This document shows, one piece after another, positions 26 through 4,503 of a stretch of DNA of 4,503 bases (within the stretch, counting starts at the first letter, position 1; every line of letters begins with the position of its first letter). Source of the stretch: a virus (lineage: Duplodnaviria > Heunggongvirae > Uroviricota > Caudoviricetes); IMG/VR virus record IMGVR_UViG_2698536435_000005. One strand, written 5' to 3'. Below the pieces are notes generated by a model. The model was not told the DNA's origin, did not search any database, and was given only the letters and a program-made list of their open reading frames with translations. A program made the position numbers and the translations under genes.

Positions 26-379
26 TTAAAAAAAGAACAAATGGTAGTGTCCGCTATTGCCAGTACACCTCAATTGCTCTGCGGCTTCGCTCAGAGCTGG
101 CGTATGTTCCCGGCCTACTGATTCACACAGGTAATCAACGAAACCGGACACCAGTTTTCGTTCGCGAGGCGTGATCGCCCCACCGACCGGAGTCCAGTAA
201 TCGAAACCCAGTTGCAGGAGTTTGAAAAAACGCTTGTGGAATGCGTAGTTACACACACGCTTAAAGTCTGCGTGTATCCACTCACCTATTTTGATTTGAT
301 GCAGAAAATCGCAACTCTCCGGCGTCGCCGGGAGAAGTAATCCGGAAGAGGTTTGTTTGACCAGTTGTATATGTGCCAT
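26..379 (-). CDS. hypothetical protein (117 aa from ATG at 379; the track ORF extends to a TTG at 421). Second gene of a two-gene cassette, Cys/His-rich, no family recognised
   Basis: Open frame ending at TAA 26-28. The ATG at 377-379 is preceded by GGAG with a 7-nt spacer (minus strand CCGGAGAAAGCCG-ATG). The alternative TTG at 421 overlaps the upstream stop as TTGA but has no comparable SD. Start choice is uncertain. Confidence 0.5.
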   Translation of the reverse strand: MAHIQLVKQTSSGLLLPATPESCDFLHQIKIGEWIHADFKRVCNYAFHKRFFKLLQLGFDYWTPVGGAITPRERKLVSGFVDYLCESVGREHTPALSEAAEQLRCTGNSGHYHLFFF

Positions 380-417
380 CGGCTTTCTCCGGTGGCACGG
401 TGTTACACAGCAGGAGT

Positions 418-705
418 TCAATCCTGCTCAAGATTGTAGATGAGTTTATTCTTCAGCAAAAGCAGAAAACCAGCCTTAAAACCAATCTCTTTCAAAACCC
501 GTAATGATGTGACAAATTCGTCCTCACGCAAAATAAAACCGTCCGTCAGAAGTCCATTACAAAAATAAAATAACACAGCACCGCTCTTCCTTTGTTGAGA
601 TTGCAAACATCTAATGCGGCAATGGCTGACAATCGCTCCATTCTCAACGCGCACAGCATAGAGGCCATTTTCACTAAAAATTTCACGCAATTCTTCGATT
701 TTCAT
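418..705 (-). CDS. hypothetical protein (95 aa), first gene of the two-gene cassette downstream of hok
   Basis: ATG at 703-705 preceded by GGAAGGA with a ~8-nt spacer; TGA stop at 418-420 overlaps the next start region. Sits downstream of a sigma70-like promoter at 787-814. No family recognised from sequence. Confidence 0.55.
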   Translation of the reverse strand: MKIEELREIFSENGLYAVRVENGAIVSHCRIRCLQSQQRKSGAVLFYFCNGLLTDGFILREDEFVTSLRVLKEIGFKAGFLLLLKNKLIYNLEQD

Positions 706-786
706 CTTCAGAATCCTTCCAGATAAATAGCTCTCCCCTGTTCGGGGTCCATCCCTCTTCTCCCTGCGCGCTACTTAAGTGAGTCG

Positions 787-814
787 ATTCTATCTGCGAA
801 GGTGCGCGAATCAA
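787..814 (-). promoter_or_regulatory. sigma70-like promoter for the downstream two-gene cassette (-35 TTGATT, 16-nt spacer, -10 TAGAAT)
   Basis: Minus-strand TTGATT (revcomp of + 809-814) and TAGAAT (revcomp of + 787-792), just past the hok terminator and ~80 nt upstream of the ATG at 705. Uses the same two hexamers as the hok promoter. Confidence 0.4.
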
Positions 815-825
815 ATTCACCGGAA

Positions 826-877
826 ATAAACAACAAAAAACCCGCCGAAACGCTGAGAGATCACAGCGATGGGCGGG
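826..877 (-). terminator. rho-independent terminator at the 3' end of the hok transcript
   Basis: Minus-strand RNA CCCGCC-CAU-CGCUG-UGAUCUCU-CAGCG-UUUC-GGCGGG (nested GC-rich stems, + 841-877) followed directly by UUUUUUGUUGUUUAUUU (+ 826-840). Confidence 0.6.
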
Positions 878-881
878 TTAA

Positions 882-946
882 GTGCGGGTGCGTTGAGGAT
901 GCCTGACACATCAGAGGTGGGCGGGGATGGGATCAGCTCCCCGCCC
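882..946 (-). promoter_or_regulatory. hok mRNA 3' fold-back region: stem-loop plus an fbi-like element complementary to the mRNA 5' end
   Basis: Perfect 9-bp stem GGGCGGGGA / TCCCCGCCC with a 10-nt loop (919-946), 9 nt after the hok stop. Plus-strand 886-898 GGGTGCGTTGAGG matches the minus-strand leader start GGGTGCTTGAGGC (+ 1268-1280) apart from one extra base, so the mRNA 3' region can pair with its own 5' end as in the fbi/tac arrangement of plasmid R1 hok mRNA. Confidence 0.45.
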
Positions 947-954
947 GGTCACTC

Positions 955-1110
955 TTACTTCCTGGATTCGTAGTCTACGAAGACAGCGACCTCCGTCTGG
1001 CCGGTTCGGATTCGTACCTCACAGAGGTCTTTCCTCGTTACCAGTGCCGTCACTATGACGGTTAAACAGATGACGATCAGGGCGATTAACATCGCCTTTT
1101 GCTGCTTCAT
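955..1110 (-). CDS. hokD: Hok/Gef-family type I toxin (51 aa): MKQQKAMLIALIVICLTVIVTALVTRKDLCEVRIRTGQTEVAVFVDYESRK
   Basis: From memory, near-identical over the first ~45 residues to E. coli HokD (RelF) and Gef (HokC), with a single TM helix and the conserved RKDLCE motif. ATG at 1108-1110 is preceded by AAGGAG with a 9-nt spacer; TAA at 955-957. The frame is open in-frame upstream to an ATG at 1167 (70-aa track ORF), which I read as a mok-like frame fused in-frame to hok. Confidence 0.85.
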   Translation of the reverse strand: MKQQKAMLIALIVICLTVIVTALVTRKDLCEVRIRTGQTEVAVFVDYESRK

Positions 1111-1114
1111 AGCC

Positions 1115-1200
1115 TGCTTCTCCTTGCCTTTCGGCATGTAAGAGGCTAACCTACATGTGCAAAGCATGAAATTGGCCTCAGATTAATGTTAAGCGTCTTG
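1115..1200 (+). ncRNA. candidate Sok-like antisense RNA region (approximate coordinates, not resolved)
   Basis: Inference only. In hok/sok loci Sok is transcribed antisense across the mok start region; here the mok-like ATG (1167) and its GAGG SD lie ~114 nt into the predicted hok mRNA. I could not pin a convincing plus-strand -35/-10 pair or terminator. Confidence 0.25.
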
Positions 1201-1286
1201 CCGGACGCGTAATGTTAACTGGGGCTTTTCTCTATCTGCCTTTTGGTGTTCATGCCTGAAGCAGATAGCCTCAAGCACCCGCAGTC

Positions 1287-1316
1287 ATTCTACTTACCTC
1301 GCCAATATGAAATCAA
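1287..1316 (-). promoter_or_regulatory. hok promoter (-35 TTGATT, 18-nt spacer, -10 TAGAAT)
   Basis: Minus-strand TTGATT (revcomp of + 1311-1316) and TAGAAT (revcomp of + 1287-1292), ~7 nt upstream of GGGTGCTTGAGGCTATCTGC. That leader start resembles, from memory, the 5' end of R1 hok mRNA (GGCGCUUGAGGCUUUCUGCC). Lies 22 nt downstream of the QueH-like stop. Confidence 0.5.
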
Positions 1317-1337
1317 TCAGAAAGGTGCCCCATAAAA

Positions 1338-2024
1338 TCACTCCTTCTCTTCTTTACCGTAGTGGAGTTGACCAATTTTGATAAGAGGGCGTCCCTGAGA
1401 TTTGCGGTGTAGATTGGTATCGCGCAGAGAATACACACAGCCACAATATTCCTGCTGATAGAATTTTTCGCGCTTGCTGATTTCAATCATACGGGACGAG
1501 CCGCCCTGCTTGCGCCAGTTATAATCCCAGTACACCATGCCCGGATAATGCGCGACGGCTCGCCGCCCACAGTCGTTAACCTGCTGCATATTTTTCCAGC
1601 GTGAAATGCCCAGTGAACTGCTGATCACACTGAAACCATTTTCAGCGGCGTACAGCGCTGTCCGCTCAAAACGCATGTCAAAACACATGGTGCAACGGAT
1701 CCCTCGTTCGGGCTCCCATTCCATTCCTTTGGCTCGTTCAAACCAGTTGTCTGTGTCGTAATCAGCATCAATAAACGGCACGCCGTGTTGTTCAGCAAAG
1801 CGAATATTCTCATCCTTACGAATTAAATACTCTTTCTGAGGATGAATGTTCGGGTTGTAGAAAAAGATGGTGTAGTCGATTCCCGAGGCCTGAAGCGCCT
1901 CCATCACCTCACCGGAACATGGAGCACAGCAAGAGTGCAGTAGTAGTTTGTTTGCCCCGTTTGGGAGCTCCAATTTGGGCCGTTTGAAATCAGCAACTGT
2001 CATAAATATGTTTATTGGGGTCAT
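1338..2024 (-). CDS. queH: QueH-like protein (DUF208, putative epoxyqueuosine reductase family), 228 aa, Cys-rich
   Basis: N-terminal [11 protein letters not shown] motif, which I recall as the DUF208/QueH signature, plus further Cys pairs (RCTMCF, YCGCV). TGA stop at 1338-1340. Neither the first ATG (2024) nor the in-frame ATG eight codons later has a recognisable SD, so the start is uncertain. Family call is from motif recall, not alignment. Confidence 0.6.
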
Positions 2025-2171
2025 AAAAATATCAAAGAGTGTAGCATTAGAACGGGGCTATCGGAAACAGATGTGTGACTGCTCCCCGCCCTTTCGGGTG
2101 GTCTCCTGATGATTTGAGGGTGCAGAAATCCCTCCGGTTAAGGATTAAATTTTTAACAGTGCTAAATTTAA

Positions 2172-2585
2172 TTATTCAGTTCTGGATTTTGTCGCCCTGC
2201 GTATCCGCGCTTTCGCGTTACGCTCAATCTGTATCAGCTTTTCTATATTTCTCCGCCTTTCCTGTTCCTCCTGGCGCAATAGCCTTACATCATCTGCCAG
2301 TCTGGTTTCTCTTTTTGCCACAGAGAGCATCCAGTCAAACGGCTCCACAACCGCACCGCAGATTTTACAGCGGACCTGACGCTCTTTTTCGTCAACCCGT
2401 ACAGAGGCGTGATGGCAATATGGTCTTTCCGATGGCTCATAAAGAAAATTAACCTGATTACGAGGGTTATCCTCTTTTACCGGAAATAAAACAATATTGC
2501 TTAACTCATCTTCTGGTTTTATTTCCATGCTCCTCTCCTTTGATGCGAATGCCAGCGGTAATTGAAGCCTGATAGCTAATTTCAT
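2172..2585 (-). CDS. hypothetical small protein with a putative Zn-ribbon (C-H-H...C-x-x-C) and a basic, coiled-coil-like C-terminus; alternative start at 2528 gives 119 aa
   Basis: The ATG at 2583-2585 abuts the upstream TGA (TGAATG). The in-frame ATG at 2526-2528 has a stronger RBS (AAGGAG, 6-nt spacer). Motif PYCHHASVRVDEKERQVRCKICG; C-terminus rich in R/K/E/Q. Confidence 0.55.
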   Translation of the reverse strand: MKLAIRLQLPLAFASKERSMEIKPEDELSNIVLFPVKEDNPRNQVNFLYEPSERPYCHHASVRVDEKERQVRCKICGAVVEPFDWMLSVAKRETRLADDVRLLRQEEQERRRNIEKLIQIERNAKARIRRATKSRTE

Positions 2586-3008
2586 TCACAGTATCGCCTC
2601 CTGAAAATTACCCTGATAGAAAGCCAGTACACGCTGCATAGCTTCGCTCTTCCGGCACTCGCGACAGATTATATTCAGGCGCCTGTCGTAGCGGCGTATT
2701 TCTCCGTCAGGTAATGACCAGATAAGGTCCGGATCAACAACAACCGGTTTCCTCACCTTTACTCTCGAGAGTTTTTTGCGGGCGCTTTGCCAGTCCTTGC
2801 GAGCCTGTTCAGACGGGAATAAGCCGTAGCCAGAATTATATACATCACCACTTGCGACCAGTTCTATGCATAAGCGACCGACAGACGCACGACTGATACC
2901 TGTTTCATCTGACAACTGCCGAATCGTGACCCGACCGTCCTGATGCACGAGTTCCACAATTCGCGTCTTCAGTTCTTCCCGCTGTTCGGGAGTAAAAGGT
3001 TTCGCCAT
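2586..3008 (-). CDS. ren: HTH protein, probably Ren-like (lambda ren family), 140 aa
   Basis: Sits immediately after the P-equivalent gene, as ren does in lambda. The C-terminal motif CRECRKSEAMQRVLAFY resembles what I recall of lambda Ren (KECRQSAAMKRVLAVY), and the N-terminus has a helix-turn-helix-like segment (TIRQLSDETGISRASVGRL). AGGAGG 4 nt upstream of the ATG at 3008. Confidence 0.6.
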   Translation of the reverse strand: MAKPFTPEQREELKTRIVELVHQDGRVTIRQLSDETGISRASVGRLCIELVASGDVYNSGYGLFPSEQARKDWQSARKKLSRVKVRKPVVVDPDLIWSLPDGEIRRYDRRLNIICRECRKSEAMQRVLAFYQGNFQEAIL

Positions 3009-3022
3009 AAATCCTCCTGAAA

Positions 3023-3769
3023 CTACTTAACAACCCTCGAATGGCTAACATTCGGACGCCAGCTCTCCCAGTTAAAATTCACCCAGCGCCCGCCGTTCAT
3101 GACCATGCGATCCATCACCCGCTCGCCGAGCAATGTTTTCATCACCTCATAGTTCAGGTTTGTCAGCATCCCCACGCTGCGCATCGACGCTGTCCGGCGA
3201 TCAACAATCTGGTGCAGCACCACCTGCTCGTTTTTCGTCTCGCGCTGAATGCCAATTTCATCAAGAACCAGCAGATCCACTTCGCACAGCTCCCGCAAAA
3301 ATTTTTCGCCTGACTGCCCGTCGTCATAGCTGGCGTGCAGGGCGCTCATAACATCAGCCACGGTAACCACAATCACTGTCTGACCGTCTTTCAGCAGGCG
3401 ATTCCCGATAGCTGCCGCTAAGTGATTCTTCCCGGTACCAGGTTTTCCGCTGAACGCAAAATTTGTACACCCGGTCATCAGTTCATCGGCGATGGATTTC
3501 GCCTGGCTTAACGCGTATCGCTGGCCGTCGTTCTGCACCTGGTAATTCGCAAACGAGCATTTACGGTGCAACGGCTGGATGCCTGAGCGATTCAGAATTT
3601 TTTCCACCCGCAACTGGCGATTCAGGCGGTTGATCTCCTCGCTACGTTTCTGGCCTTCAGCAAGTTGCCACTCGCGCCACTCCGCTACCGTTCTGAATGG
3701 GGCGGTTACATGTGGCGGGGTCAGTCGGCGGATGCGTTCCAGAACGCCGCCTGTCGCAATATTTTTCAT
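3023..3769 (-). CDS. dnaC: DnaC-family AAA+ helicase loader (phage P-equivalent replication protein), 248 aa
   Basis: Clear similarity to E. coli DnaC along the whole length, from memory: Walker A FSGKPGTGKNHLAAAIG, Walker B DLLVLDEIG, and RSGIQPLH...CSFANY and MLTNLNYEVM...LGERVMDRM blocks. ATG at 3767-3769 follows the upstream TAA (3776-3778) by two codons. Confidence 0.9.
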   Translation of the reverse strand: MKNIATGGVLERIRRLTPPHVTAPFRTVAEWREWQLAEGQKRSEEINRLNRQLRVEKILNRSGIQPLHRKCSFANYQVQNDGQRYALSQAKSIADELMTGCTNFAFSGKPGTGKNHLAAAIGNRLLKDGQTVIVVTVADVMSALHASYDDGQSGEKFLRELCEVDLLVLDEIGIQRETKNEQVVLHQIVDRRTASMRSVGMLTNLNYEVMKTLLGERVMDRMVMNGGRWVNFNWESWRPNVSHSRVVK

Positions 3770-4123
3770 GGTCCGTTACCCCCTGAAGCCTGGCGGGATC
3801 GCACTGTCCGGCAACGAGACGGTGTTAACCTGTCGGAGCAACGTCTCAGGCCGAACACCTTTCGGCGCGAACAGGCCCTGGTATTCATTGGCGATGCTGT
3901 GTCGAATCACCTGCTCAGGTGTAAAACCCTGCTGACGGAATTTTTCCAGTTCCCGTATCGCCCCGTTAGCGCCCTGCTCCGTTCGAATCGGTTTTCGCAA
4001 TGCCTGTCTGAACCGGACCCACTCATGCCAGAGTGTTTCCGGCAACCAATCGGGCAGCTCAATAGCCTCCGGCTCGAATTTTTTAGACGCTCGTTTTTGG
4101 CGAGGGGGAGATCAGTATTTAGA

Positions 4124-4174
4124 TCTTCCTCTTCCTCTTCCTCTTCCTCTTCCTCTTCCTCTTCCTCTTCCTCT
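4124..4174. repeat. perfect hexanucleotide tandem repeat (TCTTCC)8 + TCT on plus, (GAAGAG)n on minus; encodes Glu16 in minus frame B
   Basis: Read directly: 8.5 identical units with no interruptions, 51 bp. Confidence 0.95.
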
Positions 4175-4198
4175 GGTAACGCTTTTTGATCCGTTTGT

Positions 4199-4217
4199 GT
4201 AACGCTGGCAGCGTTAC
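4199..4217. repeat. perfect 19-bp palindrome GTAACGCTG-G-CAGCGTTAC (dyad GTAACGC-N5-GCGTTAC), with an extra direct half-site GTAACGC at 4176-4182
   Basis: Read directly. Lies inside the initiator gene just upstream (minus sense) of the hexamer repeat. Candidate protein-binding site (iteron or operator). Confidence 0.5.
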
Positions 4218-4406
4218 CTTTTCGTTTCAGTTCGCGTATTTTTGTTACTCGCTCGTTTGTAACCGCCCGTTTTTTTTAGAGCTTTTTCCGTTATGACGTT
4301 CAAAGTTAGGTAGAGAAAGCCCTCCGTCATTTTCGACCAGCCATCCAACCTGAATTAACGCATCAGCAAAACCAGACATAAAAGTGATGCGATCTATTGC
4401 ACTTTT

Positions 4407-4427
4407 TGTAACGCCGCGAGCGTTACA
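4407..4427. repeat. second copy of the same dyad: TGTAACGC-CGCGA-GCGTTACA
   Basis: Read directly. Shares the GTAACGC-N5-GCGTTAC half-sites and spacing with the 4199-4217 palindrome, ~210 bp away, inside the initiator N-terminal coding segment. Confidence 0.5.
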
Positions 4428-4503
4428 ATCTGCATTACCGTCTGGATTTGCCCCTATATTTCCAGACATCTGTTATCACTTAACCCATTACAAGCCCGCT
4501 GCC

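Follow-up and report, generated by a model that had tools for sequence, protein, structure and literature searches.

A clone-wide pseudogene in Shigella sonnei, very probably the remnant of a lambdoid prophage replication-initiator gene

Three short open frames on the minus strand of the window (by which we mean the whole 4,503-nt stretch of viral DNA that was analysed) are, very probably, what is left in the Shigella sonnei lineage of a dead replication-initiator gene from a lambdoid, Rac-like prophage. The remnant (3776–4443, minus strand) corresponds to codons 49–260 of an intact 260-aa protein, split over three frames, and it carries three independent lesions, each of them disabling: an enlarged A run, a 10-bp deletion between short direct repeats, and an insertion sequence (IS) in the 5′ part of the gene. 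The gene is intact in other bacteria and in phages, and both indels recur in the assemblies that closely match the window.

An initial annotation had described the three segments, each open in its own frame (4469→4248, with its stop at 4245–4247; a Glu-rich segment; and 4111→3776), and had offered three readings of the arrangement: a pseudogene in a cryptic prophage, homopolymer under-calling by the sequencer, and slippage-dependent expression. The description of the frames is accurate, and it is the first of these readings that stands, while the other two fail on the evidence given below. When the window is aligned to the intact E. coli homologue used as the reference (L002:4077–4859), taking out two A and putting back 10 nt leaves a single uninterrupted ORF of 224 aa, whose product is the same as residues 49–260 of the intact protein apart from one S-to-T change and an extended Glu tract. 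The pieces lie in three frames because the two indels produce cumulative offsets of +2 and then −8. It had been calculated that one extra A at the first break, and one extra C or A at the second, would also join the frames, and this arithmetic is right. The ~235-aa protein expected from such a repair is a 5′-truncated fragment of a 260–266-aa protein and not a full-length product.

The prophage remnant

The window is a 4.37-kb scrap of decayed prophage with IS600 at one end (1–72) and IS2 at the other (~4443–4503), prophage homology being limited to 73–4443, and every gene between the two IS ends lies on the minus strand. The IS600 end, which was assigned because prophage homology begins at 73 and because its matches fall at annotated IS600 transposase genes, truncates a DUF1367 gene (~26–421) and forms the boundary of the remnant opposite the initiator gene. 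For the resulting IS600/DUF1367 chimeric ORF (117 aa), 521 blocks are listed in a public assembly collection, and this ORF may be a marker of the S. sonnei clone.

Beyond it lie a 95-aa ORF (418–705), whose identical gene in S. sonnei loci has a Pfam 'Rem' match, and the hok ORF (955–1167) with its sok RNA (1105–1280; RF01794, 117 bits), a type I toxin-antitoxin locus (955–1280) that appears intact and has been retained in the prophage scrap. They are followed by an intact gene for QueH, an epoxyqueuosine reductase (1338–2024; Pfam E 1.9e-65), which is a tRNA-modification gene carried as phage cargo within the lambdoid remnant, and then by a Zn-ribbon ORF (2172–2585) and DUF977 (2586–3008). 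Next come an intact DnaC-like helicase-loader gene of the ydaV type (3023–3769; NCBIfam model PRK12377, E 8e-154; Pfam IstB_IS21; PHROG 50), the initiator remnant and, finally, the right end (IRR) of IS2 (4443–4503), which matches the K-12 IS2 end exactly. In S. sonnei, the remnant (L022:7546–12354) adjoins the modCBA-acrZ-modEF genes and a fragment of an integrase, a site that presumably lies close to the classical attachment region of lambda, between gal and bio.

The intact gene and its family

Where it is intact, the gene consists of one ORF of 260–266 aa located just upstream of the DnaC-like loader gene. The closest E. coli genome, FDAARGOS_943, is 99.5% identical to the window over 73–4443 and has one 260-aa ORF at the position of the initiator, and exact or near relatives of 260–266 aa are found in E. 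coli, E. marmotae, Salmonella and S. dysenteriae. The gene is also present at full length and 95% identity in the phage genomes vB_EcoS-673R7, vB_EcoS-613R10 and vB_EcoS-666R9, where its annotation reads 'DNA replication protein O' and a DnaC-like gene comes next; in vB_EcoS-673R7, the order of the two genes (initiator, then loader) is that of the window. The spacing within the window also fits a lambdoid replication module, with ydaV starting 7 nt downstream of the initiator stop (3769 and 3776, respectively).

The intact 260-aa protein matches no Pfam family at E ≤ 0.01, so that its assignment to a family was based on PHROGs, synteny and the annotation of phage records. It matches positions 1–260 of the 277 in the profile of PHROG 2509 ('replication initiation protein'; E 1.9e-87), a similarity that covers its full length, and its gene is 99% identical in DNA to the remnant in the window. 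As the window copy lacks a complete translatable ORF, it is a pseudogene of the PHROG 2509 family and no functional member of it. Additionally, residues 82–234 match PHROG 678 ('replication initiation O-like'; E 4e-25), and PHROG 6451 also matches the C-terminal region, where the PHROG labels are 'O-like' and 'primosomal protein'. At the level of annotation homology and synteny, the view that an initiator gene lies upstream of the intact DnaC-like gene, already put forward in the initial annotation, is well supported by the PRK12377 and PHROG matches and by the gene order of the phages.

The C-terminal segment (3776–4111, minus strand) encodes a DnaT-C-like domain, since residues 168–260 of the intact protein (3776–4050 in the window) are similar to the DnaT C-terminal domain (PDB 2ru8_A, E 3.3e-4; 9zbt_D, E 9.5e-4), and it presumably contacts the loader or single-stranded DNA. 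The intact protein would consist of a presumed origin-binding N-terminal domain, a Glu-rich linker and the DnaT-C-like domain, the last of which would pair with the downstream DnaC-like loader. In public records, this intact family is poorly annotated, appearing in RefSeq as 'hypothetical protein' and without a Pfam family.

The first break: a longer A run

The first break is located at a run of eight A on the gene strand (4270–4277, minus strand; T8 on the plus strand), where the initial annotation had placed a one-base deficit. All the intact relatives have six A instead, so the window has gained two bases. The A6 state was found in the loci L001, L002, L009 and L010, in all ten metagenome contigs and in the phage homologues (L031–L033), and the codons that contain it (TCT AAA AAA CGG) are kept even in homologues with only 50–66% protein identity. 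Among 5,426 complete E. coli genomes, there was no A7, A8 or A9 allele with the exact flanks of the window, and the best E. coli matches to the A8 and A9 queries had gaps of 2 and 3 nt, respectively, which again correspond to A6. Judged from these alignments, the break is a +2 expansion from A6 to A8 and not the loss of one base from A9. Replication slippage within the run would account for it.

The run lies in the sequence A_AAA_AAC, which is in the zero frame at 4270–4278 (minus strand) and conforms to a slippery heptamer, and a −1 shift on it would rejoin the first segment to the frame of the linker. As A/T runs of 8–9 support transcriptional slippage in enterobacteria, a functional initiator could in principle be produced from the window by ribosomal −1 frameshifting or by transcriptional slippage on the A8 run. 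However, we consider this vanishingly unlikely. Outside the S. sonnei lineage, every homologue has A6 and is read in a single frame, and the frameshifted arrangement is therefore derived and not conserved. Furthermore, the second junction, which is the scar of a deletion, contains no slippery heptamer, so that not every junction has a recoding signal, and the native start and the 5′ 48 codons have been replaced by IS2. Even perfect slippage on A8 would give a truncated chimera that meets a wrong-frame stop after the Glu tract.

The second break: a 10-bp deletion

At the second break, the initial annotation had correctly placed the neighbouring runs (G5 at 4104–4108 and T5 at 4094–4098, plus strand) and had suggested that one of them had lost a single base. 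Instead, the intact sequence GATCT-CCCCCTAAAT-CCCCCTCGCC has become GATCTCCCCCTCGCC in the window, where CCCCCTAAAT is the 10 bp that was lost, and the loss, which lies between two 7-bp direct repeats, TCCCCCT, has its junction at 4103–4109 (minus strand). The ancestral A6 and CCCCCTAAATCCCCCT are both present in L002, L009 and L010. Homologues with A9 and C6 or A6 runs had been predicted, and those found have A6 and 10 bp more than the window. Among the 5,426 complete E. coli genomes, none matched the deletion junction over its full length, and the best hits with full coverage had a gap of 9 or 10 nt. The second break is a 10-bp deletion and not a change in homopolymer length. It has the classical footprint of a slipped-strand deletion, and we infer that the 10 bp were lost by such a mechanism between the two TCCCCCT repeats.

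The same stretch has also been hit elsewhere. In E. coli 2013C-4974 (L001:4077–4894), the gene has been inactivated independently by the loss of one C from the first C5 of CCCCCTAAATCCCCCT, and RefSeq labels this copy as frameshifted.

Between the two breaks, the Glu-rich linker is encoded by a hexanucleotide tandem repeat, (GAGGAA)n (4124–4174, minus strand; in TRF, period 6, 8.5 copies and 100% match). Its units are in frame, its length in the relatives varies between 9 and 48 nt, and it causes no break. In nearly identical S. sonnei genomes, its length is 18, 24, 36 or 48 nt, and the window has 48 nt versus 24 nt in the Logan contig L003; these differences may reflect real variation in copy number or, in part, the collapse of the repeat in short-read, k-mer-based assembly. 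The coexistence of this variable tract and the A run, both of them simple sequences, might suggest a contingency locus in which the gene is switched on and off reversibly. We find such phase variation very hard to credit, as changes in the number of hexamers are in-frame only, and the A run, read in seven assemblies, in L003 and in the window, is A8 throughout the lineage and is A6 elsewhere, with no intermediate or mixed states. In addition, neither the 10-bp deletion nor the IS insertion is reversible.

The 5′ end: an IS2 junction

The third lesion is an IS in the 5′ part of the gene, which is IS600 after codon 36 in most S. sonnei and IS2 in the window. Here, prophage homology ends at 4443, with an ambiguity of 1–2 nt in the IS2 boundary, and 4442–4503 agrees letter for letter with the end of IS2 in E. 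coli K-12 AG100, where it stands beside an annotated IS2 transposase CDS. On the minus strand, this end reads as the last 15 codons of the transposase and its stop (...QRACNGLSDNRCLEI*, stop at 4454–4456). Codons 1–48 of the initiator (MASNWIKLEV...ADQQMI) are absent from the window, with IS2 sequence in their place, a lesion that had been overlooked. The ATG at 4469, which had been taken as the start of the gene, and the eight codons that follow it (MSGNIGANP) derive from IS2, the ATG lying inside its terminal repeat. The ORF that begins there (4245–4469, minus strand) encodes 74 aa and is a chimera of nine IS2 codons, initiator codons 49–105 and an out-of-frame tail past the A8 run; it should not be counted as an annotated gene start.

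In the typical allele of S. sonnei, IS600 splits the gene after codon 36 with a 3-bp duplication (GTT), and codons 1–36 sit upstream of the element. In the window and in L003, IS2 abuts the gene 39 nt further in than the IS600 site, and codons 1–48 may have been either deleted or displaced by a simple insertion of IS2. The A8 run and the 10-bp deletion are common to the IS600-type and the IS2-type alleles and, consequently, both predate at least the IS2 event. The IS2 allele is rare: besides the window, the exact 74-aa ORF was encountered in a single public assembly, a Logan contig (SRR6248939), and was not found in an exact look-up among the members of protein clusters. The IS2/initiator junction, when looked for by exact match in the GTDB species-representative genomes, gave no hit.

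Expression of the remnant from an outward promoter in IS2 was also considered, and it was dropped when a promoter scan of 3700–4503 returned no consensus match.

Fixation in the S. sonnei lineage

Through the IS600/DUF1367 chimeric ORF, eight long loci were obtained, seven of which contain this type of initiator. These seven assemblies are 99.7–100% identical to the window, six of them with two mismatches or fewer over 4,144 nt. The A8 run is present in all seven (L022 and L024–L029), and the 10-bp deletion in the six where the site can be read (L022, L024, L025, L026, L027 and L028); in L029, the second site has been removed by a further, IS-associated deletion. Two of the seven are documented as S. 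sonnei: CP022457 (strain 2015C-3566, L024) and CP019689 (strain 75/02, L025). Additionally, the Logan contig L003 (SRR6248939) reproduces the IS2 junction, the A8 run and the 10-bp deletion.

The remaining locus, from GCA_001258575.1, has a DUF1376 (YdaU-type) initiator (L023:1747–2604) upstream of an identical ydaV, to be compared with L022:1902–2611. This could be the result of module mosaicism, of recombination between co-resident Rac-like prophages, or of a chimeric assembly.

Since homopolymers are error-prone sites on some sequencing platforms, and one break falls in an 8-base run and the other beside a C5 run, the frameshifts might have been introduced by sequencing or assembly into a gene that is truly intact. 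This is highly improbable, and the reading of the breaks as sequencing errors is effectively refuted. The same A8 was obtained in seven independent NCBI assemblies, draft and complete, and the same 10-bp deletion in six readable ones, and both lesions appear in a separate short contig of Logan. One of the assemblies, that of S. sonnei 75/02, was sequenced on Illumina MiSeq and in effect provides the check by an accurate short-read method that had been asked for; it shows both A8 and the 10-bp deletion. Besides, a loss of 10 bp is no error of homopolymer length, and the truncation by IS2 disables the gene whatever the lengths of the runs.

Neither lesion was found in the 5,426 complete E. coli genomes or in the ten metagenome contigs. 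Eight of these contigs have intact ORFs of 260–262 aa, and the other two encode 204 aa from the start codon, probably because these contigs, of 1.9–2.0 kb, end inside the gene. S. flexneri SFBU1023, which came from a search of genome contigs with the C-terminal segment of the window as the query, has the intact allele. With intact orthologues on one side and lesions repeated in independent genomes on the other, the lesions are genuine mutations that the S. sonnei lineage has fixed and that are specific to it.

A candidate origin within the gene

The gene contains a cluster of dyad-symmetric GTAAC/GTTAC sites (4199–4426), which are candidate origin iterons. The motif GTAACGC occurs six times in the window, versus 0.44 expected, and five of the six are inside the gene. 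The sites include two 19-bp palindromes, GTAACGC-N5-GCGTTAC (4408–4426 and 4199–4217), together with a GTTAC-N10-GTAAC element (4244–4263) and a half-site (4176–4182). In phage TL-2011b and a Klebsiella phage, the same palindromes are found at the same two positions of genes that are only 64–67% identical in nucleotides there (the corresponding regions of the homologues are L031:1649–1876, L032:1649–1888 and L033:2649–2909). The cluster looks like a putative origin that lies within the coding sequence of its own initiator, in the manner of lambda O, and the candidate origin of the intact family might merit a small separate study.

A stronger proposal would be that the palindromes are the iterons of a lambda-like origin for initiators of the DnaT-C-like type, and that the remnant is still competent in cis, so that a superinfecting phage might activate it in trans. 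We regard this as rather unlikely. If it were true, the S. sonnei remnant would keep a cis-competent origin together with an intact DnaC-like loader, and a superinfecting phage with a matching initiator could cause local over-replication or interference.

Consequences

Returning to the dead remnant, we infer that no functional initiator is made and that the remnant is unable to start its own replication. Fragments of the protein, such as the 74-aa IS2-initiator chimeric ORF, may be produced at low levels.

The main use of these results is in annotation hygiene, and they matter little beyond that: what had the appearance of a homopolymer sequencing error is a real, clone-wide pseudogene. Additionally, the two indels and the IS junctions are possible lineage markers for S. 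sonnei.

Comparison with known systems

Lambda O is an initiator whose origin (ori-lambda) lies in its own gene and which has a helicase-loading protein as its partner. The gene described here resembles it in several respects. It occupies the same slot in the module, after cro and cII/YdaT-like genes and immediately before the gene of the helicase loader; its product has two domains with a central linker and matches the O-like PHROG 678, and close homologues in phages are labelled 'replication protein O'; and dyad-symmetric repeated sites are found within the coding region. By contrast, there is no match to the Pfam domains of lambda O (nor to any Pfam family), the C-terminal domain is DnaT-C-like instead of lambda O's own, the partner is an AAA+ loader of the DnaC type and not lambda P, and the gene in the window is dead.

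The resemblance to DnaT of E. coli is restricted to one end of the protein. The last ~93 residues can be aligned to the DnaT C-terminal domain, and the alignment takes in the NTVS-PDS-IPPGFRG motif at the very end; as in the dnaT-dnaC operon of E. coli, the initiator gene is directly followed by a DnaC homologue. The DnaT_C motif has been described in O-like, phage-derived proteins (PMC5509034). However, the N-terminal two thirds of the initiator are unrelated to DnaT, and its score with the NCBIfam DnaT model PRK02854 is 16.2 bits, versus a cut-off of 201. With a score so far under the cut-off and an unrelated N-terminal part, the protein is no orthologue of DnaT.

A third comparison is with the ydaU-ydaV pair of Rac. 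In Rac-like prophages, the gene precedes ydaV; it is called 'ydaU' in some records, and initiators of the DUF1376 type and of the present type alternate at one locus in related genomes (L023). The intact homologue has no match to DUF1376 (PF07120), the domain expected of YdaU; the initiator is of a different type, a mosaic alternative that stands outside the YdaU family.

Finally, the state of the gene is that of other Shigella pseudogenes produced by IS and indels. It is flanked and interrupted by IS600 and IS2, it has frameshifting indels at short repeats, and it belongs to a fragmentary prophage whose lesions are fixed across the clone, with nothing that sets it apart from the general pattern. 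It is ordinary for Shigella and typical of the reductive evolution of this group.
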